Notes under the pieces: model-generated | What the model was told of the DNA's origin: nothing | What the model saw: the letters and a program-made list of their open reading frames with translations, nothing else | Database searches by the model: none | Part shown: one piece after another, positions 54,103 to 64,000 of the stretch | How positions within the stretch are numbered: position 1 is the stretch's first letter | Layout: each line of letters begins with the position of its first letter | Sequence record: OR352945.1 | Strand: one strand, 5' to 3' | DNA: 64,000 bases | Source: Escherichia phage AV115 | Made by a program: the position numbers and the translations under genes

Positions 54103-54110
54103 TATAAATA
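54103..54110 (+). promoter_or_regulatory. late promoter TATAAATA (gene 34)
   Basis: Exact TATAAATA ~30 nt before gene 34 ATG. Confidence 0.7.
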
Positions 54111-54140: not shown

Positions 54141-57100
54141 ATGGCCGACATCAAACGTAAGTTCAGAGCCGAAGACGGTCTGGACGCCGGTGGCGACAAG
54201 ATTGTTAACGTAGCATTAGCCGACCGTACAGTAGGTACTGATGGCGTAAACGTTGACTTCCTGGTACAAGAAAACACCGTTCAAGTATATGATTCTACGC
54301 GTGGATATAACAGAGGATTTGTTGTTCTTTATGACAACCGCTTATATCAAGCAATAAATGATATCGTGTCTCCTTCCGGGGCATTTAACCTTTTACAATG
54401 GCGTGCAGTTCGTACTGATGCACAATGGATAACCGTCGCTTCTGGGACTTATCAACTTTCTTCAGGCGAATCGATTTCTGTTAACACTGGTGCCGGCAAT
54501 GATATGGTTTTCACGTTGCCAAATACTCCGGTTGATGGTGATACTGTTGTTTTGGCTGATATTGGTGGAAGAACCGGGACAGTTAAAGTACAGATTAACG
54601 CGTCTGTGCAGAGTATTTTAAACTTTAGAGGTGAACAAGTTCGTACAGTTTTAATGACGCGCCCACGTTCACAACTATTGTTTGTGTTTAGTAATCGTTT
54701 GTGGCAGATGTATATTATCGATTATGGTAAAGAATCAATCACTGTTACACCTGCGACACCATATCAAGCACAAGCAAATGATTTTATCGTTCGTCGTTTT
54801 ACTAGTGCAGCACCAATCAACATTACACTTCCACGTAATGCTAACAATGGTGATATAATCAGCCTAGTCGATTTAGATAGATTAAACCCACTGTATCATA
54901 CAATTGTTAAAACATTTGATGATACAACGTCTATTGGTGAAGTCGGGACTCATATTGCCGAAGGCAGAAATGACTCTGACGCGTTTTTTGTTTTTGATGC
55001 CGCAAATAGTTTATGGCGTATATGGGAAGGCGACCAGAAATCGCGTCTTCGTATTATCCGTGCGGATTCAAATATTCGTCCAAATGAAGAAGTTCTTATT
55101 TTTGGCACAAATAACGCTACAGCCGGAACTATTAATCTTACGCTGCCTTCCGGAATTTTGAGTGGTGACACTGTTAAAATTTCAATGAACTACATGCGTA
55201 AAGGCCAAACAGTAAAAATTAAAGCTGCCGAAGGTGATACAATTGCTTCTTCTGTCGCATTACTTCAGTTCCCTAAACGTTCTGAATATCCACCTGATGC
55301 TCAATGGGTTTCTGTTACTGAACTAGAATTCAATGGCACTACTTCATATGTTCCTGTGTTAGAATTAGCGTATATCGAAGACACTGTTGCTGGTACACGT
55401 TATTGGGTTGTTCAACAAAACGTCCCTACAGTAGAACGTGTTGATGCTGGAACTGATGCTACACGAGCTCGTTTAGGTGTTATTGCTCTTGCTACTCAAG
55501 CGCAAGCAAATGTTGATTTAGAGAATACTCCAGCTAAAGAAGTGGCTATTACTCCGGAAACATTGGCAAATCGTACAGCAACTGAAGCTCGACGTGGTAT
55601 CGCTAAAATTGCTACAACAGCACAAGTTAACCAGAATTCCACAGCATCATTTGTGGACGATACTATTGTTACGCCTAAAAAACTAAATGAGCGTACAGCA
55701 ACTGAAACTCGTCGCGGTCTTGCTGAAATTGCTACTCAGACCGAAACCGATGCTGGTCTTGATGACACAACGATTATTACACCTAAGAAATTGCAGGCAC
55801 GTCAGGGTTCTGAAACACTATCGGGTATAGTTAAATATGTATCAACTACTTCTGCTACTCCTGCTGAAACTCGTGGGGCTGCAGGCACTAACGTTTATAA
55901 TAAAGACACAACTACGTTAACTATTTCGCCTAAAGCTCTCGATCAGTATAAAGCGACTTCTACTCAACAGGGTGCTACTATTCTGGCTCTTGAAAGTGAA
56001 GTAATTGCTGGTCAATCCCAAGCAGGTTATTCTCATGCTGTAGTAACTCCTGAAACACTACATAAGAAAACTTCTACTGATGGACGTATTGGTTTAATTG
56101 AAATTGCTACGCAAGCAGAAACTAATGCTGGGACTGATTATACACGTGCAGTAACGCCTAAGACGTTAAATGATAGGAAAGCTACGGAAGGATTATCCGG
56201 CATAGCCGAACTTGCTACGCAAGTTGAATTTGATACTGGAACTGATGATACTCGTATCTCGACTCCACTGAAAATTAAAACTCATTTTGATTCTTCTGAC
56301 CGTACCAGTGTTAATTCTGATTCCGGACTTATTGAAGAAGGAACCTTGTGGAACCATTATACTCTTGATATTTCTAAAGCAAATGAAACACAACGTGGTA
56401 CACTTCGCGTAGCGACCCAGGCAGAATCTAATGCAGGAACTTTAGATGATGTTCTTATTACTCCTAAAAAGCTTTTAGGGACTAAGTCCACTGAAACGTC
56501 TGAAGGCGTAATTAAGGTTGCTACTCAGGCTGAAACTGTAACAGGAACTTCTGCTAATACTGCTGTATCTCCTAAGAATTTAAAATGGATTGTCCAGAAA
56601 GAACCAACATGGGCTGCTACTACAGCAATTCGCGGATTCGTTAAAACTTCATCCGGTTCTATTACATTCGTTGGTAATGATACAGTCGGTTCTACCCAAG
56701 ATTTAGAACTGTATGAGAAAAATAGCTATGCAGTATCACCATATGAATTAAACCGTGTATTGGCAAATTATTTGCCGTTAAAAGCAAAAGCCGTAGATAG
56801 TAATTTATTGGATGGTCTAGATTCATCTCAGTTCATTCGTAGGGACATCGCCCAGTCAGTTAATGGTTCACTAACCTTAACCCAACAAACGAATCTGAGT
56901 GCCCCTCTTGTATCATCTAGTACTGCTACGTTTGGTGGTTCAGTTTCGGCAAATAGTACATTAACTATTTCTAACTCTGGAACAGCTACTCGTCTGATTT
57001 TTGAAAAAGGACCTCAGTCCGGAACAAATCCTGCTCAAACGATGACTATCAGAGTTTGGGGAAATGAATTTGGTGGTGGTTCAGATACAACACGTTCTAC

Positions 57101-58016
57101 TGTATTTGAAGTTGGTGATGAAACATCTAATCACTTTTATTCTCAACGTAATAAAGCTGGGAATATAACGTTTAGCATTAATGGTACTGTGATGCCAATA
57201 AATGTTAACGCTTCAGGCACGTTAAATGCGAATGGTGTAGCAACATTTGGTCGTTCAGTTACAGCCAATGGTGAATTCATTAGCAAGTCTGCAAATGCTT
57301 TTAGAGCAATAAACGGTGATTATGGATTCTTTATTCGTAATGATGCCTCTAATACCTATTTTTTGCTCACTGCAGCCGGTGATCAGACTGGTGGTTTTAA
57401 TGGATTACGCCCATTATTAATTAATAATCAATCCGGTCAGATTACAATTGGTGAAGGCTTAATCATCGCCAAAGGTGTTACTATAAATTCAGGCGGTTTG
57501 ACTGTTAACTCGAGAATTCGTTCTCAGGGTATTAAAACATCTGATTTATATACTCGTGCGCCAACATCTGATACTGTAGGATTCTGGTCAATCGATATTA
57601 ACGATTCAGCCACTTATAACCAGTTCCCAGGTTATTTTAAAATGGTTGAAAAAACTAATGAAGTGACTGGGCTTCCATACTTAGAACGCGGCGAAGAAGT
57701 TAAATCTCCTGGTACATTGACTCAGTTTGGTAATACACTTGATTCACTTTACCAAGATTGGATTACTTATCCAACAACTCCAGAAGCACGTACCACTCGC
57801 TGGACACGTACATGGCAGAAAACTAAAAATTCTTGGTCAAGTTTTGTTCAGGTATTTGATGGAGGTAACCCTCCTCAACCATCTGATATTGGTGCTTTAC
57901 CATCTGATAATGCTACAATGGGGAATCTTACTATTCGTGATTTCTTAAGGATTGGTAATGTCCGCATTATTCCAGACCCTGTGAATAAATCTGTTAAATT
58001 CGAGTGGATTGAATAA
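54141..58016 (+). CDS. 34: long tail fibre proximal subunit
   Basis: 1291 aa; repeated TPKxL..R.ATE..G.A.IAT fibre motifs; late promoter at 54103. Confidence 0.95.
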   Translation: MADIKRKFRAEDGLDAGGDKIVNVALADRTVGTDGVNVDFLVQENTVQVYDSTRGYNRGFVVLYDNRLYQAINDIVSPSGAFNLLQWRAVRTDAQWITVASGTYQLSSGESISVNTGAGNDMVFTLPNTPVDGDTVVLADIGGRTGTVKVQINASVQSILNFRGEQVRTVLMTRPRSQLLFVFSNRLWQMYIIDYGKESITVTPATPYQAQANDFIVRRFTSAAPINITLPRNANNGDIISLVDLDRLNPLYHTIVKTFDDTTSIGEVGTHIAEGRNDSDAFFVFDAANSLWRIWEGDQKSRLRIIRADSNIRPNEEVLIFGTNNATAGTINLTLPSGILSGDTVKISMNYMRKGQTVKIKAAEGDTIASSVALLQFPKRSEYPPDAQWVSVTELEFNGTTSYVPVLELAYIEDTVAGTRYWVVQQNVPTVERVDAGTDATRARLGVIALATQAQANVDLENTPAKEVAITPETLANRTATEARRGIAKIATTAQVNQNSTASFVDDTIVTPKKLNERTATETRRGLAEIATQTETDAGLDDTTIITPKKLQARQGSETLSGIVKYVSTTSATPAETRGAAGTNVYNKDTTTLTISPKALDQYKATSTQQGATILALESEVIAGQSQAGYSHAVVTPETLHKKTSTDGRIGLIEIATQAETNAGTDYTRAVTPKTLNDRKATEGLSGIAELATQVEFDTGTDDTRISTPLKIKTHFDSSDRTSVNSDSGLIEEGTLWNHYTLDISKANETQRGTLRVATQAESNAGTLDDVLITPKKLLGTKSTETSEGVIKVATQAETVTGTSANTAVSPKNLKWIVQKEPTWAATTAIRGFVKTSSGSITFVGNDTVGSTQDLELYEKNSYAVSPYELNRVLANYLPLKAKAVDSNLLDGLDSSQFIRRDIAQSVNGSLTLTQQTNLSAPLVSSSTATFGGSVSANSTLTISNSGTATRLIFEKGPQSGTNPAQTMTIRVWGNEFGGGSDTTRSTVFEVGDETSNHFYSQRNKAGNITFSINGTVMPINVNASGTLNANGVATFGRSVTANGEFISKSANAFRAINGDYGFFIRNDASNTYFLLTAAGDQTGGFNGLRPLLINNQSGQITIGEGLIIAKGVTINSGGLTVNSRIRSQGIKTSDLYTRAPTSDTVGFWSIDINDSATYNQFPGYFKMVEKTNEVTGLPYLERGEEVKSPGTLTQFGNTLDSLYQDWITYPTTPEARTTRWTRTWQKTKNSWSSFVQVFDGGNPPQPSDIGALPSDNATMGNLTIRDFLRIGNVRIIPDPVNKSVKFEWIE

Positions 58017-58024
58017 GAGGTATT

Positions 58025-59152
58025 ATGGAAAAATTTATGGCTAAGTTTGGACAAGGATACGTCCAAACGCCATTTTTATCGGAAAGCAATTCAGTACGAT
58101 TTAAATTAAGCATAGCGGGCTCTTGCCCGCTATCAACATCTCCTGCTTATATTAAGTTCCAGGATAATCCACTTGGTTCCCAGGTTTTTTCCGTTGGATT
58201 AAACGTTCGTGTAATAAATCCTACAACAGGTGCAGTAGTTGAATCTAAGTCATATAATTTCTCTACTGAAAACGACGCCACGTCAAGTGCATTTGTTACT
58301 TACATGGATACATATGCTTCAAATTTTATATTTGCTCTTGTTACTAACGCTAAAACAAACTTTCCTCCTGAAGTTCTCGCATGGTTTACCAAAGCTGGGA
58401 GTTCTGCTATTCCATTAGCTCAACAAGTTTTAAATATAGTGGACATTTCTTATTCTGCATTTTATATTTCTGGTAAGAACGCTATAGCACTAGAACATAT
58501 TAAGTATAGTAATAAGAAAACTTCAACCGACTATAGTACACCACTTGATGTTGTGTACGACACTATCGATGATATTGGTGCTACCGGCTTCCCTAGTCGT
58601 ACGTACGAATCGACAGACACATTTTTATCTGCTGTTGGAGGTACTAATAACGAAATTAAAAGGATGCCTACAACATCCCTTATTACACCTCTCGCTGGGT
58701 ATAAATTGAAGCCTGGAGATTTCCTTTATATGAAATTCCAACTAATGGCCGATGCTGATTTGTTAGCACAAGGGACGACACGACTCTCTATTCGTTTCTT
58801 TAAATCTCCTTCTACTTCACCTATTTCATTTAAGGATATAAACTTTGATGGGGCTGCAGGTGAATGGAAGATATATGAAGACTACATAGAAATTCCTGCT
58901 GGTGCTGACGGGTTCACGATTTATTGTTATCGTACAGCTCCAGTCGGGCAAGGTGGATTAAGAAACGTTATATTCACTGAAGTATCATGTAATGGAAGCG
59001 TTTCAAAACCTGCTGAGTTTGGTATAAATGGTATTCGTGTAAATTATGTTTCAGAATCTTTAAGTGCCCCAGACATAATGACATTACCTACTCAATCTTC
59101 AACTGATACCGGTAAGGTATTTGGACAAGAATTTAAAGAAGCATCAGAATAA
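58025..59152 (+). CDS. 35: long tail fibre hinge protein
   Basis: 375 aa; synteny 34-35-36-37. Confidence 0.9.
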   Translation: MEKFMAKFGQGYVQTPFLSESNSVRFKLSIAGSCPLSTSPAYIKFQDNPLGSQVFSVGLNVRVINPTTGAVVESKSYNFSTENDATSSAFVTYMDTYASNFIFALVTNAKTNFPPEVLAWFTKAGSSAIPLAQQVLNIVDISYSAFYISGKNAIALEHIKYSNKKTSTDYSTPLDVVYDTIDDIGATGFPSRTYESTDTFLSAVGGTNNEIKRMPTTSLITPLAGYKLKPGDFLYMKFQLMADADLLAQGTTRLSIRFFKSPSTSPISFKDINFDGAAGEWKIYEDYIEIPAGADGFTIYCYRTAPVGQGGLRNVIFTEVSCNGSVSKPAEFGINGIRVNYVSESLSAPDIMTLPTQSSTDTGKVFGQEFKEASE

Positions 59153-59157
59153 ATTTA

Positions 59158-59175
59158 GGGAGACCGAAGTCTCCC
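59158..59175 (+). terminator. stem-loop GGGAGACCGAAGTCTCCC (copy 3), after gene 35
   Basis: Identical 18-nt hairpin followed by ATTTTTG, then late promoter. Confidence 0.6.
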
Positions 59176-59182
59176 ATTTTTG

Positions 59183-59190
59183 TATAAATA
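59183..59190 (+). promoter_or_regulatory. late promoter TATAAATA (gene 36)
   Basis: Exact TATAAATA ~25 nt before gene 36 ATG, after gene 35 terminator. Confidence 0.7.
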
Positions 59191-59214: not shown

Positions 59215-59877
59215 ATGGCCGATTTAAAAGCTGGTAGTACAACTGGCGGTGCCGTTATATGGCATCAAGGTAATTTCCCTTTAATGCCAGCAGGTGATGA
59301 CGTCCTGTATAAAACGTTTAAACTCTATTCAGAATATAATAAACCACAAGCTGCTGATAATGATTTCGTTTCTAAAGCTAATGGTGGTACTTACGCTGCA
59401 ACTGTTCGATTTAACGGAGGCGTACATGTTCCTACTGTAGGTAGTAGTCAACAGTGTGGTGTTTATCCAGGTAACGGTGATGCAGCTACTTTTGATATGG
59501 CAAATATTGACATCGTTTCGTGGAATGGTATTGGTTTTAAGTCATCACAAGGTTCAGCAGACCGAACTGTTGTTATTAACGCTCGTAATGGTGATATTAG
59601 TACAAAAGGCGTTGTGACAGCAGTAGGTCAAGTAAGAAGCGATGCGACTTCTCCTATAGCAGCGAATGATCTCACAAGAAAAGATTATGTTGATGGACGA
59701 ATAAATATTGTTACGGATAACGCAAATTCCCGTGTATTGCGTAAAGGCGATACCATGATTGGTACTTTAACAGCACCAAACTTTTTCTCACAGAATCCGG
59801 CGTCTGAGGCTAATCATGTTCCTCGTTTCGACCAGATTGTAATTAAAGATTCTGTTCAAGATTTCGGCTATTATTAA
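59215..59877 (+). CDS. 36: long tail fibre proximal-distal connector
   Basis: 220 aa; late promoter at 59183. Confidence 0.9.
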   Translation: MADLKAGSTTGGAVIWHQGNFPLMPAGDDVLYKTFKLYSEYNKPQAADNDFVSKANGGTYAATVRFNGGVHVPTVGSSQQCGVYPGNGDAATFDMANIDIVSWNGIGFKSSQGSADRTVVINARNGDISTKGVVTAVGQVRSDATSPIAANDLTRKDYVDGRINIVTDNANSRVLRKGDTMIGTLTAPNFFSQNPASEANHVPRFDQIVIKDSVQDFGYY

Positions 59878-59885
59878 GAGGACTT

Positions 59886-62800
59886 ATGGCTACATTAAAA
59901 CAGATACAATTTAAAAGAAGCAAAGTAGCAGGAGTTAATCCTACTGCAGCACAATTAGCCGAAGGCGAATTAGCGATAAACTTAAAAGATCGAACTCTTT
60001 TTACTAAAGATGACCTCGGTAATATTATTAGCCTAGGCTTTGCTAAGGGTGGGGATATTAACGGTAATGTAACTCAAACTGGCGATTATTTACAAAACGG
60101 CACGTATAATCTCAATGGAAATCAGTTTGTTTACGCAGGAAAATACATTGAATTTTTACCTAAAACCACTGGAAATGGCGCTTGGGCTAACCAACATTCG
60201 AATAAAGCCCCTATCTTTACAGATTTAAGTTCAACTACTTCTGTTTCAGAATACCATCCACTGATTAAACAACGTTATAAAGATGGAACTTTTTCTGCTG
60301 GTACATTAGTAAACGAAGGTAGTTTTAAATTCCATTATATTGATGAAACCGGGACTTCAAAATACTGGACTTTTAATCGAAACGGTAATTTTCAAGTTGA
60401 TTCCGGAAGTTTATTAGTATCTAATGGATATTTAGTTACTCAAAGTAATATTGAAACTAAAGCTGGTTCTTTAATTGGTCCTAAAGTTATTACCAAAAAT
60501 ATCAATGTGAGTACTAAATCTTGGGACACTAATATTGATACTGCATATGATTTAGTTTCATTACCGACTTGGCACTATACTCCAACCGAAACAGATTTGG
60601 ATACTAATGGTATAAACTACCTTCGTAAATTCCGCGGACATGTTTCTTCTGCTATTTTCCATGAAGTTGCTGATGCTCGTTCAGGTAAACCACAGAATAT
60701 TTCGTATTGGACGGGACGTAATGCTGAAGTTTATCAATGGTCTTATACCACAGACGGGCGTATGTCTGTTGCTAATTCGATAGGTATAGGTCTTGCTGAT
60801 GTTGGTGACCAAGGACGTTATCCATTGGTTTCGTTTGGTAAAGGTATTGCAATTGGTGACAATGATACTGGTATTAAATGGGTTCGTGACGGCGTTATTG
60901 ATTTGATTGCTAACGGTGTTTCGACCGGTACAATAAACAGTACTGGTGTTAATAGTACAAAGAAATTAACAGTTGGGTATAGCCGTGATTCTGGATCTAC
61001 TTGGGATTATCCGAATACCAACCAGGCAATGTTCAGCGCTAGAACAGAAGTTGATGGTAATAATAACGGTGATGGTCAAACTCACATTGGTTATAGTTCT
61101 AATGCTAAGATGTATCATTATTTCCGTGGCGCTGGCCGCATGGCCATCAGCATGGGTGAAGGTCTTATTGTCGAACCAGGAATTCTTGATATTAAAACCG
61201 GTTCAAATTCGTTAAATTTGCGTGCTGATGGTACCATCGCTTCTGTTCAAACGTTAAAACTTAATAATGGATTATATTTTAATGGTGATGGAACTAATGC
61301 TTCTCTAATTTTTAAAGCAGCTTCAGGTATTGATGGTACTAAGCAAATTTTGTGGGAAGGCGGTACTCGTGCAGGTCAGAACAAAAGTTATGTGACCGTG
61401 AAAGCATGGGGTAACTCATTTAATGCTACTGGTGATAAAGCTCGAGAAACCGTATTTGAGGTTTCTGATGGCCAAGGTTATTATTTCTATTCTCAACGCG
61501 TAGCTCCGACCGGTTCTGAAACTACAGGCCCTGTTGTAACTCAGTTCAATGGACAGGTTAATGCTAGAGGAAGCTTAATAACCGACGGAAGTCTTAGAGT
61601 TAACGGATTAAGCACTCTAGTTGGCAACGTTACAATGAATAATGGATTGTTTGTTCAAGGCGGTTCTTCTATTACTGGACAAGTTAAAATTGGTGGAACA
61701 GCTGATGCATTAAGAATTTGGAATGCTGAATACGGTGCTATTTTCCGTCGTTCTGAAGATAAGCTTTATATTATTCCAACTCCGCAGAATGCTGGTGAAT
61801 CAGGTGGTATTTCTAATTTACGTCCGTTCTATATTGCATTAAGTAATGGTAAAGTTTCTATGGATCATGATGTAGATATCGGCGGCGGCAGATTTAAAGT
61901 AGAAGCTGCTGGAACTACGGCTGGTCAACGCATAACAGTAAATATGGCATCAGATGCTATTAGAATAAATGCTCCAACACAAGAGTCTTCTAACTTCATT
62001 CAAGGACGTAAAGCAGATGTTCCGAAATGGTATTTAGGTATTGGCGACGGCGGCAACGTCGTTCGTATGCACAGTTACACATATTCACATGGTATTGCAT
62101 TAAACTCTGATTCTGTCGATATTACTAAACCTCTTAAAGTCGGAAATGCCCAACTAGGAACCGATGGCAATATCACGGGCGGTTCAGGAAACTTTGCTAA
62201 CTTGAATACAACTTTAAACCGTAAAGTGAATTCTGGTTTTATTACTTATGGAGCAACTGCAGGTTGGTACAAGTTTGCAACAGTAACAATGCCTCAAGCT
62301 ACATCAACCGTTTCAATTACAGTCACTGGCGGAAATGGATCTAATTCTGGATCATTTAATCAGTGCGCAATTTCTGAAATTGTTCTTCGTACAGGAAACA
62401 ATACTCCTAAAGGATTAAATGCTGTTCTATATAGAAGAGGACTAAATTCATTTAGAGATATTGCTTGGGTTAATACATCTGGCGATACATATGACATTTA
62501 TGTCAATATGGGAACATATGCTAATCAGTTAATATTCAATTACAGTTCTGTTGATAATGCAACAGTTCAAATAATTGGCGCATTTAGCTCAGCTCAAAGT
62601 CCTGTTGATACATTACCGGAAACAAATGTTAAAGGACAGGTAGCAGATGTATTGACTAACTTAGTTGATTCAGGAAAAACAAAGCGTTTTGTTGCTGAAT
62701 CTGAAATAGCTGTTAATAATCAAACTGGATTACGTATTACGAGTAATGGTGATAAATCTGGTTCAAATTCAGTATTATTTAGAAATGACGGTGGAAGCTT

Positions 62801-63779
62801 CTATATTTTACTGACCGACAAAAACTCTTCAGACGGCGATAATAAAGCAACTGAAGGTGGTTGGAATGGAAAACGACCATTTTCAATTGATATGACTGCT
62901 GGTACTGTTCGTCTTGGCGAAAATACTTCTTTTGGTAAAGATGTTACTATTGATGGAAGCATTAATTCACGAGTTAAAGTTGTCGGACAGTGGAGTGTTA
63001 GCTTTTCTGATATTTCAGATGTGACTCGTGACCGTTCTGCATTTTTAGTGAATACGGGTGGCATTTCCAAGACAAGTCAATCTTATTACCCGCTATTTTC
63101 TGGATACAGTTTTTTAACTGACGCAGGTTATCGCCAATCGTTTGAATTTGGATGGTTAGGTGTTTCTGGTACTTGGCGTCAAGGCATTATTCGCATGCGT
63201 GGTGACAACCCATCGGGGCAACAGGCTCGTTGGACTTTTGATATGGACGGAACATTTTATGCTCCTATACTATCATGCGGATCTGCGAGAGCATTCGGTG
63301 TCAATACAACAAATGGATGGGGTGGTAACTCAATTGCGATAGGTGATAGTGATACTGGTTTTAGACAAGTAGGCGATGGGCTTTTAGAAACATGGGCAAA
63401 CAACGTTAAGGTCGTTCGTTATACTTCAAGTGAAGTTTATTCCGAGAAAAACGTCAACGCTCCTAACGTTTATATTCGTTCTGATATTCGTTTGAAATCT
63501 AATTTCAAGCCTATTGAAAACGCGCTCGAAAAGGTTGAACAACTTGATGGTTTAATCTATGACAAAGCTGAATATATAGGCGGTGAACCTGTCCAAACAG
63601 AAGCGGGTATTGTGGCTCAAACACTGCAAGATGTTTTACCAGAAGCAGTTCGTGAAGTTGAAGATATTAAGGGTAATAAAATACTCACTGTTTCTTCTCA
63701 ATCCCAGATTGCTCTTCTGGTTGAAGCTGTGAAAACACTTTCTTCTCGTGTAAAAGAACTTGAATCTAAACTTATGTAA
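59886..63779 (+). CDS. 37: long tail fibre distal subunit with C-terminal intramolecular chaperone
   Basis: 1297 aa; C-terminal ~100 aa (from ...YIRSDIRLKSNF to end) resembles self-cleaving chaperone domain. Confidence 0.93.
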   Translation: MATLKQIQFKRSKVAGVNPTAAQLAEGELAINLKDRTLFTKDDLGNIISLGFAKGGDINGNVTQTGDYLQNGTYNLNGNQFVYAGKYIEFLPKTTGNGAWANQHSNKAPIFTDLSSTTSVSEYHPLIKQRYKDGTFSAGTLVNEGSFKFHYIDETGTSKYWTFNRNGNFQVDSGSLLVSNGYLVTQSNIETKAGSLIGPKVITKNINVSTKSWDTNIDTAYDLVSLPTWHYTPTETDLDTNGINYLRKFRGHVSSAIFHEVADARSGKPQNISYWTGRNAEVYQWSYTTDGRMSVANSIGIGLADVGDQGRYPLVSFGKGIAIGDNDTGIKWVRDGVIDLIANGVSTGTINSTGVNSTKKLTVGYSRDSGSTWDYPNTNQAMFSARTEVDGNNNGDGQTHIGYSSNAKMYHYFRGAGRMAISMGEGLIVEPGILDIKTGSNSLNLRADGTIASVQTLKLNNGLYFNGDGTNASLIFKAASGIDGTKQILWEGGTRAGQNKSYVTVKAWGNSFNATGDKARETVFEVSDGQGYYFYSQRVAPTGSETTGPVVTQFNGQVNARGSLITDGSLRVNGLSTLVGNVTMNNGLFVQGGSSITGQVKIGGTADALRIWNAEYGAIFRRSEDKLYIIPTPQNAGESGGISNLRPFYIALSNGKVSMDHDVDIGGGRFKVEAAGTTAGQRITVNMASDAIRINAPTQESSNFIQGRKADVPKWYLGIGDGGNVVRMHSYTYSHGIALNSDSVDITKPLKVGNAQLGTDGNITGGSGNFANLNTTLNRKVNSGFITYGATAGWYKFATVTMPQATSTVSITVTGGNGSNSGSFNQCAISEIVLRTGNNTPKGLNAVLYRRGLNSFRDIAWVNTSGDTYDIYVNMGTYANQLIFNYSSVDNATVQIIGAFSSAQSPVDTLPETNVKGQVADVLTNLVDSGKTKRFVAESEIAVNNQTGLRITSNGDKSGSNSVLFRNDGGSFYILLTDKNSSDGDNKATEGGWNGKRPFSIDMTAGTVRLGENTSFGKDVTIDGSINSRVKVVGQWSVSFSDISDVTRDRSAFLVNTGGISKTSQSYYPLFSGYSFLTDAGYRQSFEFGWLGVSGTWRQGIIRMRGDNPSGQQARWTFDMDGTFYAPILSCGSARAFGVNTTNGWGGNSIAIGDSDTGFRQVGDGLLETWANNVKVVRYTSSEVYSEKNVNAPNVYIRSDIRLKSNFKPIENALEKVEQLDGLIYDKAEYIGGEPVQTEAGIVAQTLQDVLPEAVREVEDIKGNKILTVSSQSQIALLVEAVKTLSSRVKELESKLM

Positions 63780-63780
63780 A

Positions 63781-63798
63781 AGAGGGCTTCGGCCCTCT
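63781..63798 (+). terminator. stem-loop between genes 37 and 38
   Basis: AGAGGGC-ttcg-GCCCTCT immediately after gene 37 stop, before gene 38 SD. Confidence 0.45.
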
Positions 63799-63809
63799 AA
63801 GGATTTTTA

Positions 63810-64000
63810 ATGGCAATTGTAGGTGTTCCTGGCTGGATTGGTGAATCTGCCGTGAATGAAACTGGACAACGTTGGATGGATGCTGCAATGAAAGCAGTTC
63901 GTGTTTCAGTTCCTGGTTGGATGAGTTCAATGGCTGGGCAATCTAAAGAGATTCATTATAGCATTGGTGCTAGCAATTCTTACAATAAAGACACACTAAT
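63810..64000 (+). CDS. 38: T2-type tail fibre adhesin, N-terminal fragment (partial)
   Basis: MAIVGVPGWIGESAVNETGQRWM resembles the gp37-binding N-terminus of T2-type gp38; runs off window end. Confidence 0.8.
   Translation, partial: MAIVGVPGWIGESAVNETGQRWMDAAMKAVRVSVPGWMSSMAGQSKEIHYSIGASNSYNKDTL

Follow-up and report, generated by a model that had tools for sequence, protein, structure and literature searches.

[quoted passage not shown] The S16 gp37-gp38 tip complex (PDB 6F45) was reportedly described by Dunne et al. in 2018. In T4, gp37 has a His-box needle tip and lacks an intramolecular chaperone domain (IMC); T4 gp38 is an unrelated protein, by annotation a chaperone that does not form part of the virion. 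The gp37 of T2 and T6 undergoes proteolytic cleavage and carries gp38 as its cap (PMC3157838), and C-terminal processing of T2 gp37 has been reported (Drexler 1986, as cited in PMC3157838). Cleavage of S16 gp37 at DLNVS^SDRRIKK frees the gp38 docking surface, while a cut at DVYIR^SDGRLKI is predicted for the fPS phages (PMC7917993).

We analysed a stretch of 64,000 nucleotides (hereafter, the window) carrying gene 37 and the 5' end of gene 38 of a Mosigvirus-type T-even phage. These two genes very probably encode a long tail fibre tip of the T2 type, which would be processed and capped as in T2 and S16.

Gene order and intergenic elements

The synteny g34-g35-g36-g37-g38 is common to the window, T2, T6, T4, S16 and AV109 (Table 1). 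The length of 1297 aa that the initial annotation had assigned to gp37 was confirmed by the ORF, and the value of about 1026 aa that it gave for T4 gp37 agrees with the 1026 aa given by NC_000866. When compared to PHROGs, gp37 matched phrog_1699 (long tail fibre distal subunit) with 1046 bits from residue 1 to residue 1297. Its C-terminal sequence reads ...NVYIRSDIRLKSNF...KELESKLM. The shaft contains a Gp34_trimer-like module (PF21446, aa 514-650, E 2e-10) and a gp37_trimer module (PF20744, aa 691-765, E 5.6e-11), and residues 484-704 align to the T4 gp34 structures 4UXE/5NXF. The Pfam matches reported here (Peptidase_S74, gp37_trimer, Gp34_trimer and Gp38_N) each exceeded the curated cutoff of the model, and no NCBIfam model matched gp37 or gp38. 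Opposite-strand ORFs within g37, which are only 50-89 aa long and without support, were discarded.

Table 1. Position of the features of the distal fibre locus in the window.
Feature	Position (nt)	Strand	Basis or remark
T4-type late promoter box TATAAATA	59183..59190	+	exact match, 25 nt ahead of g36 ATG
Gene 36, hinge/distal connector of long tail fibre, 220 aa	59215..59877	+	Phage_T4_gp36 E 2.9e-37; phrog_1425
Gene 37, long tail fibre distal subunit precursor, IMC included	59886..63779	+	ORF, 1297 aa
gp37 shaft trimerisation modules, Gp34_trimer-like and gp37_trimer	61425..62180	+	Pfam
Recombinant patch, gp37 aa ~768-1261	62186..63668	+	AV109-type flanks, Tequatrovirus FJ1-like/KIT06-like inside
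Final beta-structured segment at the tip of gp37 in its predicted mature form, aa 1145-1198	63318..63479	+	aligns to 6F45_A
Predicted autoproteolytic cleavage site R1198-S1199	63477..63482	+	SDIRLK from aa 1199; aligned to S16 site mapped by experiment
Intramolecular chaperone domain (IMC, Peptidase_S74), gp37 aa 1199-1297, 99 aa	63480..63776	+	PF13884
Putative intercistronic hairpin AGAGGGC-UUCG-GCCCUCU, directly past g37 stop codon	63781..63798	+	7-bp stem, UUCG loop, -13.4 kcal/mol
g38 Shine-Dalgarno AAGGA	63799-63803	+	next to hairpin
gp38 adhesin gene, 5' part	63810..64000	+	Gp38_N; ORF open at window end

The window contains 18 boxes with the sequence TATAAATA, as compared to 7.3 expected, and another of them is found at 54103, before g34. 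The box at 59183 is likely to be the start of a g36-g37-g38 late transcript. The spacer between g37 and g38 is 30 nt long. In T2 the hairpin and the Shine-Dalgarno sequence in this spacer are identical to those of the window, and in T4 and S16 a hairpin with another stem sequence occupies the equal position, in T4 likewise past the g37 stop. When evaluated in a 61-nt context, the stability of the hairpin was not above that of shuffled sequence (z = -1.0), and what argues for a real element would be its positional conservation and not its energy. Neither Rfam, used with its gathering thresholds, nor ARAGORN gave a hit anywhere in the window.

Mosaic structure of gene 37 and host range

From nt 59886 to nt 62185, no differences were observed with respect to AV109 (OR352939), which is a Mosigvirus, as is AV114 (OR352944). 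The patch that follows runs from the distal shaft across the tip and the cleavage site into the IMC, of which it takes in the first two thirds; here 598 of 1483 positions differ from AV109, corresponding to an identity of only about 60%. The larger part of this patch (nt 62186-63611) has 47 differences in 1426 nt with respect to the Tequatrovirus vB_EcoM_FJ1 (MZ170040; 96.7% identity), and nt 63612-63668 are KIT06-like. The sequence then returns to the AV109 type (3 differences in 331 nt from 63669 to 63999), and the first 63 residues of gp38 are identical in the two phages. The left crossover lies between 62169 and 62185. Neither AV109 and AV114 nor FJ1 carries the whole gp37 gene, and none of the phage records was near-identical over the whole query. 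A search of the protein-contig index did not turn up the exact gp37 protein, nor did IMG/VR give an exact match to a 56-nt probe over the left junction. On the basis of these comparisons, gp37 is to be regarded as a mosaic of recent origin, set in a Mosigvirus backbone. This fits the recombination pattern already known for the locus, where mosaicism of g37 through recombination between conserved blocks is said to be the norm (Tetart 1998, as cited in PMC3157838).

That gp38 would set host range agrees with what has been published for T2-like phages and for the nearest relatives (PMC3157838, PMC10844046). The close relatives AV114 and AV115 use Tsx, and their gp38 was grouped with that of AV109 (PMC10844046); like these two, the window probably has a gp38 of the Tsx-binding type. 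Given the mosaic locus, the remainder of gp38 may differ from the AV109 type.

The swapped distal shaft of gp37 (aa ~768-1198) might also shape host range, by binding LPS or another surface structure or by changing the reach of the fibre, in which case gp38 would not be the sole determinant. We consider this unlikely. A 1.48-kb patch with 60% identity to AV109, set in a gene that is otherwise identical to that of AV109 and followed by an AV109-type gp38 5' end, is a pattern that would fit selection on the shaft itself; the published norm of g37 mosaicism, however, needs no functional explanation (Tetart 1998, as cited in PMC3157838). The module at aa ~780-900 of the patch is common to many fibre families (phrog_22609, 21552, 3299, 6722 and 11029), but the patch has no recognisable binding domain. 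Moreover, although a narrow host range is reported for AV109 and a broader one for AV114 (PMC10844046), receptor use among the fPS phages tracked gp38 and not gp37 (PMC7917993). It also seems doubtful that the very recent swap of distal shaft, tip and most of the IMC, between AV109-identical flanks and with gp38 apparently unchanged, reflects selection on the shaft, with the gp37 portion next to the adhesin having a host-range role of its own (through contact with LPS or O-antigen, or through the geometry of the fibre) and the IMC-coding sequence, which is conserved, serving as the right-hand recombination handle.

The gp37 chaperone domain and the start of gp38

The initial annotation had read the last ~100 residues of gp37, from about nt 63480, as an intramolecular chaperone, and had proposed to align them to Peptidase_S74. 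The alignment covers the entire model (PF13884, model positions 1-58 of 58, aa 1199-1256, 52.6 bits with a cutoff of 22, E 5.7e-14), and the reading is borne out by the catalytic Ser and Lys and by the alignments of the gp37 C-terminus to the S16 tip and IMC chain 6F45_A (E 2.6e-10 with the single sequence, 2.1e-13 with the profile) and to the S74 domain of MYRF, 7DC3_A (E 2.6e-4 with the profile). Matches of the same profile to influenza HA2 (E 0.01-0.2) were judged to reflect chance or coiled-coil-like similarity. The domain takes up the final 99 of the 1297 residues, in a protein that also contains gp37_trimer and Gp34_trimer modules, and it ends as a heptad-like helix, ...IALLVEAVKTLSSRVKELESKLM. 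A single-sequence AlphaFold2 prediction of aa 1141-1297 placed three helices past the cleavage site, in what is too poor a model (pLDDT 40.6, pTM 0.30) to establish the fold. The C-terminal position on a trimeric fibre and the Ser-Lys dyad are in common with the Peptidase_S74 proteins K1F endoNF, T5 pb1 and MYRF, whereas the rest of the sequence of the endosialidase and tailspike IMCs is distant from gp37. The T2 type is also unlike these in that removal of the IMC unmasks a docking site for a separate adhesin.

The dyad S1199/K1204 (Ser-x4-Lys) lies in NVYIR^SDIRLK, with the S1199 codon at nt 63480-63482, and the residues S1199, D1200, R1202 and K1204 are invariant across the window, T2, T6 and S16. 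From this we infer that gp37 is cut between R1198 and S1199; the residue before the cut is Arg in the window gp37 and Ser in S16. The preceding segment, aa 1145-1198 (WGGNSIAIGDSDTGFRQVGDGLLE...NAPNVYIR), can be aligned with S16 gp37 in 6F45_A from residue 23 to residue 67 and beyond, the S16 tip having extra insertions with respect to the window gp37. In the fPS phages, the DVYIR strand, which is equivalent to NAPNVYIR, was described as the gp38 docking tip (PMC7917993), and aa 1145-1198 are predicted to form the gp38 docking surface after loss of the IMC.

The ORF downstream of gp37 had been taken for the start of a gp38 adhesin lying mostly beyond the window. Both points hold: the ORF opens with an ATG at 63810, reads MAIVGVPGWIGESAVNETGQRWMDAAM... 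and runs for 63 codons to the window end, so that 63 of about 260 residues are inside. Its product matched the whole Gp38_N model (PF21721, positions 1-40 of 40, 69.4 bits with a cutoff of 25, E 2.6e-19), phrog_2056 and phrog_1121 ('tail fiber protein; host specificity', 'tail fiber adhesin') and the S16 gp38 crystal-structure chain 6F45_D (E 1.8e-7). The three docking tryptophans W9, W22 and W37 are kept, being invariant across the window, T2, T6 and S16. Glycine-rich gp38 motifs are present in AV109, in 236Ecol005PP (the first 63 aa of its gp38 being the same as in the window) and in the other relatives examined.

It is very improbable that the S74 domain stays on the fibre uncleaved and that gp38 acts elsewhere or only transiently, considering that the catalytic Ser/Lys pair is unaltered and canonically spaced, that the domain differs very little from its counterpart in T2 gp37, for which processing has been reported (Drexler 1986, as cited in PMC3157838), and that the docking tryptophans of gp38 are conserved. 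If processing and capping occur as in T2 and S16, gp37 would be made as a 1297-aa precursor, in which the 99-residue Peptidase_S74 chaperone would be the nucleus from which the beta-structured distal shaft trimerises and folds. The S1199/K1204 dyad would then cut the R1198-S1199 bond and the chaperone would leave, exposing a flat hydrophobic tip made of three ...NAPNVYIR strands, on which gp38 may dock. The hypervariable loops of the glycine-rich C-terminal domain of gp38, a part encoded past nt 64000, would bind an outer-membrane protein and in this way set host range.

T2 subtype of the tip

The tip had been assigned to the T2 type, and the comparison upholds this. Identity with T2 is 80% over the C-terminal 157 residues of gp37 and about 83% (82.5%) over the 63 residues of the gp38 N-terminus, as compared to 36% and 54% with T6. 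A lock-and-key pairing of gp37 and gp38 by subtype was described for T2-like phages (PMC3157838), and the presence of the T2 subtype in both the gp37 C-terminus and the gp38 N-terminus matches it. The gp37 of T2 (MH751506), where the gene order is the same, aligned end to end with that of the window (50% identity), and the last ~130 residues, which take in NAPNVYIR^SDIRLKSNF as well as the complete IMC, are nearly identical. However, T2 gp37 is longer (1341 vs. 1297 aa), the middle of the shaft is strongly diverged, and the T2 genome is a Tequatrovirus whereas the backbone of the window is Mosigvirus. S16 is homologous in both the gp37 tip with IMC and the gp38 N-domain, and shares S-D-x-R-x-K and the three Trp prongs, but its identity is only about 30-46% and its gp37 is much shorter (749 aa).

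A tip of the T4 type, with the gp37 C-terminus as receptor-binding needle and gp38 as a chaperone for assembly that is not found in the virion, is refuted by the sequence: although AV118, a Mosigvirus reported with T4-type gp37 and gp38 (PMC10844046), has a backbone 98.9% identical to that of the window outside the fibre locus, and the locus is the same as in T4, the homology to T4 gp37 is limited to the N-terminal half (window aa 1-662, 47% identity), the His-box (HxH) needle C-terminus of T4 has no counterpart in the alignment of the two gp37 proteins, and T4 gp38 gave no BLASTP alignment with the gp38 N-terminus at E<=10, Pfam and PHROGs giving instead the adhesin-type Gp38_N. Both fibre types therefore appear to circulate in this lineage.

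The T2-type tip described here raises no new biological question. With the mosaic gp37, a further natural case is added of modules exchanged at the distal fibre locus of T-even phages, here between Mosigvirus and Tequatrovirus, and R1198, as the predicted mature end of gp37, is useful for annotation. Both in annotation and in the prediction of host range for phage therapy, receptor specificity would have to be read from gp38 and not from gp37.

Layout of the long tail fibre locus

The initial annotation had described the end of the window as a fibre tip made of a gp37 of 1297 residues with a C-terminal intramolecular chaperone (IMC), followed by a gp38 adhesin. An ORF of this length, encoding the distal subunit of the long tail fibre, was found downstream of gp34, gp35 and gp36, and the whole protein is matched by phrog_1699 of the PHROGs collection ('long tail fiber protein distal subunit', 1046 bits). 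The length given for T4 gp37 (about 1026 aa) agrees with the 1026 aa found in NC_000866, and each factual point of the annotation was confirmed. The protein ends with ...EKNVNAPNVYIRSDIRLKSNFKPIENALEKVEQLDGLIYDKAEYIGGEPVQTEAGIVAQTLQDVLPEAVREVEDIKGNKILTVSSQSQIALLVEAVKTLSSRVKELESKLM and, after a spacer of 30 nt from the g37 stop codon, the gp38 reading frame begins with MAIVGVPGWIGESAVNETGQRWMDAAMKAVRVSVPGWMSSMAGQSKEIHYSIGASNSYNKDTL and leaves the window after 63 codons, so that gp38 lies largely outside of it, as annotated.

Features of the AV115 fibre locus, with the gp37 segments and their nearest relatives
Feature	Position	Strand	Remarks
T4-type late promoter box TATAAATA	nt 54103		before g34
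gp34	nt 54141-58016		upstream of gp37; Pfam and PHROGs
gp35	nt 58025-59152		upstream of gp37; Pfam and PHROGs
7-bp hairpin, CGAA loop	nt 59158-59175		g35-g36 spacer
T4-type late promoter box TATAAATA	nt 59183		25 nt upstream of g36
gp36	nt 59215-59877		upstream of gp37; Pfam and PHROGs
gp37 ORF	nt 59886-63779	+	1297 aa
Gp34_trimer-like module	gp37 aa 514-650		Pfam
gp37_trimer module	gp37 aa 691-765		Pfam
Peptidase_S74 ('chaperone of endosialidase')	gp37 aa 1199-1256		Pfam
Segment, gp37 aa 1-~767	nt 59886-62185		nearest AV109; 0 differences in 2300 nt
Segment, gp37 aa ~768-1242	nt 62186-63611		nearest Tequatrovirus vB_EcoM_FJ1; 47 differences in 1426 nt, 96.7% identity
Segment, gp37 aa ~1243-1261	nt 63612-63668		best match KIT06; one difference
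Segment, gp37 aa ~1262-end, spacer, gp38 5' end	nt 63669-63999		nearest AV109; 3 differences in 331 nt
7-bp hairpin, UUCG tetraloop	nt 63781-63798		between g37 stop codon and g38 Shine-Dalgarno
gp38 5' end	nt 63810 (ATG) to window end	+	63 codons visible

The late promoter box before g36 suggests that g36, g37 and g38 share a late transcript. In the whole window, TATAAATA was observed 18 times as compared to 7.3 expected, and 12 of the 14 boxes on the + strand fall within the first 25 kb; this distribution is compatible with T-even late transcription units. Hairpins of the C(UUCG)G type have long been known from T4 intercistronic regions. The g37-g38 hairpin keeps its position in T4, in the T2 group and in S16, whereas its stem sequence differs from those of T4 (loop UUCG) and S16 (loop UACG). 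This hairpin may act on mRNA stability, or may adjust the level of gp38 against that of gp37 to reach their 1:3 stoichiometry.

gp37 has two copies of the motif IAIGDxDTGxxxxxDG...ANN, one in its proximal third (aa ~321-355, nt ~60846-60950) and the other directly before the tip (aa ~1145-1189, nt ~63318-63452). Segments of S16 gp37 match both copies, which suggests that a beta-helix module is duplicated within gp37. Pfam ILEI (interleukin-like EMT inducer domain) matched gp35 with 30.6 bits vs. a cutoff of 27, probably reflecting a shared small beta-domain fold with no functional link. ORFs on the opposite strand within g37 are short (50-89 aa) and none is supported; Rfam and tRNA scans of the entire window gave no matches.

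The chaperone domain, the gp38 fragment and the T2 subtype

Peptidase_S74 matched gp37 over the complete model (1-58 of 58), with 52.6 bits vs. a gathering cutoff of 22 and an E value of 5.7e-14. The last ~150 residues aligned to chain A, the gp37 tip, of 6F45, the crystal structure of the gp37-gp38 tip complex of Salmonella phage S16, with E values of 2.6e-10 (single sequence) and 2.1e-13 (profile of six sequences); human MYRF was also found by this profile through its S74 domain (7DC3, E 2.6e-4). These matches bear out the likeness to an intramolecular chaperone, whose start had been placed around nt 63480: S1199, the serine of SDIRLK, is encoded at nt 63480-63482. The columns of S1199, D1200, R1202 and K1204 are invariant in the alignment of gp37 from the window, T2, T6 and S16, and S1199 and K1204 correspond to the S74-family Ser...Lys dyad. 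S16 gp37 is cut between both serines of DLNVS^SDRRIKK, and the cut predicted in Yersinia fPS phages is DVYIR^SDGRLKI (PMC7917993). By alignment, the predicted cut in AV115 is NVYIR(1198)^S(1199)DIRLK, which would give a mature gp37 of 1198 aa and a released chaperone of 99 aa. Single-sequence structure prediction of tip and IMC reached a pLDDT of only 40.6, too low for the model to be used.

The 63-aa gp38 fragment was matched by Gp38_N of Pfam ('phage tail fibre adhesin Gp38 N-terminal domain'; 69.4 bits vs. a cutoff of 25, E 2.6e-19), by PHROGs 2056 and 1121 ('tail fiber protein; host specificity' and 'tail fiber adhesin') and by chain D of 6F45 (S16 gp38, E 1.8e-7), in agreement with the adhesin type initially proposed. 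W9, W22 and W37 are invariant in the window, AV109, T2, T6, S16 and FJ1; they correspond to the three tryptophans of the gp38 attachment domain that have been described as prongs entering hydrophobic pockets of the gp37 tip (PMC7917993).

The locus was compared to those of T2, T4, T6 and S16. T2 gp37 (1341 aa) aligns end to end with 50% identity and is nearly identical in its last ~130 residues, NAPNVYIRSDIRLKSNFKPIENAL included, and T2 gp38 shares 82.5% of the 63 visible residues. In contrast, only the N-terminal 662 aa align well with T4 gp37, which has short weak local matches further on and ends in a histidine-rich needle. A T4-type tip was rejected, because T4 gp37 has no S74 domain and T4 gp38 gave no alignment to the gp38 fragment even at E<=10. 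Over its C-terminal 157 aa, gp37 shares 80% identity with T2 and 36% with T6; for the gp38 N-terminus, the values are 83% and 54%, respectively. Both ends are closer to T2 than to T6 and lack T4 counterparts, as the T2-type assignment had anticipated; among adhesin-type fibres, the tip is classified by these identities as T2 subtype. The shared subtype fits the 'lock-and-key' pairing that Trojet et al. (PMC3157838) described between subtypes of the gp37 C-terminus and of the gp38 N-terminus.

Relatives of the locus and mosaic structure of gp37

The window backbone (30-54 kb) is 98-99% identical to AV118, AV116, AV114 and AV109, Mosigvirus phages from Danish pig waste, AV118 being the closest (98.9% over 30000-54000). 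The best whole-region match of the fibre locus is AV109/AV114 (83% coverage, 93.8% identity), and AV109 gp38 is identical across the 63 visible residues. AV109, AV114 and AV115 are reported to carry T2-like gp38 adhesins, T4-type fibres are reported for AV118 and further members of the genus, and AV114 and AV115 were shown to need Tsx (PMC10844046). The backbone is nearest to AV118, with its reported T4-type fibre, whereas the fibre locus belongs to the AV109/T2 adhesin type, so that Mosigvirus backbones that are nearly identical circulate with either tip architecture. As receptor, Tsx can reasonably be guessed only if gp38 stays AV109/AV114-like beyond the window.

By the sources of the single gp37 segments, a ~1.5-kb cassette was exchanged between genera. 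Compared with AV109, the patch at nt 62186-63668 has 598 differences in 1483 nt (~60% identity). The left crossover lies between nt 62169 and 62185, within a block (gp37 aa 751-800) with conservation of at least 92% across the five relatives of a protein alignment made without T2, and the right-hand junctions (~63611 and ~63668) lie within the conserved IMC-coding region. The cassette covers distal shaft, tip, cleavage site and the larger part of the chaperone; as both partners are of T2 subtype, the gp37-gp38 docking pair is preserved. Recombination between conserved motifs is documented for this locus (Tetart et al., 1998, as cited in PMC3157838). A search of the contig index did not return the exact gp37, and in IMG/VR no exact match was found to a probe of 56 nt over the left junction. 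This gp37 joins known segments in a combination not recorded before, as is ordinary for the locus; a functional effect of the swap itself is a minor possibility.

Proposed maturation of the fibre tip

The ORFs, the domain memberships, the catalytic and docking residues, the synteny and the T2 subtype are established here. By analogy with T2 and S16, the IMC would drive the distal shaft to fold as a trimer, the Ser/Lys dyad would next cut R1198|S1199 and the IMC would then dissociate. The exposed tip, made of three NVYIR strands, would bind the N-domain of one gp38, whose polyglycine sandwich would present the hypervariable loops for binding to an outer-membrane protein. According to Trojet et al. 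(PMC3157838), who cite Drexler et al. (1986), gp37 of T2 and T6 undergoes proteolytic cleavage at its C-terminus and is capped by gp38. The results support the initial interpretation: the feature is a T2-type distal tail-fibre module of the standard kind, here in a Mosigvirus, and the architecture, mechanism and evolutionary behaviour of this module are already known.
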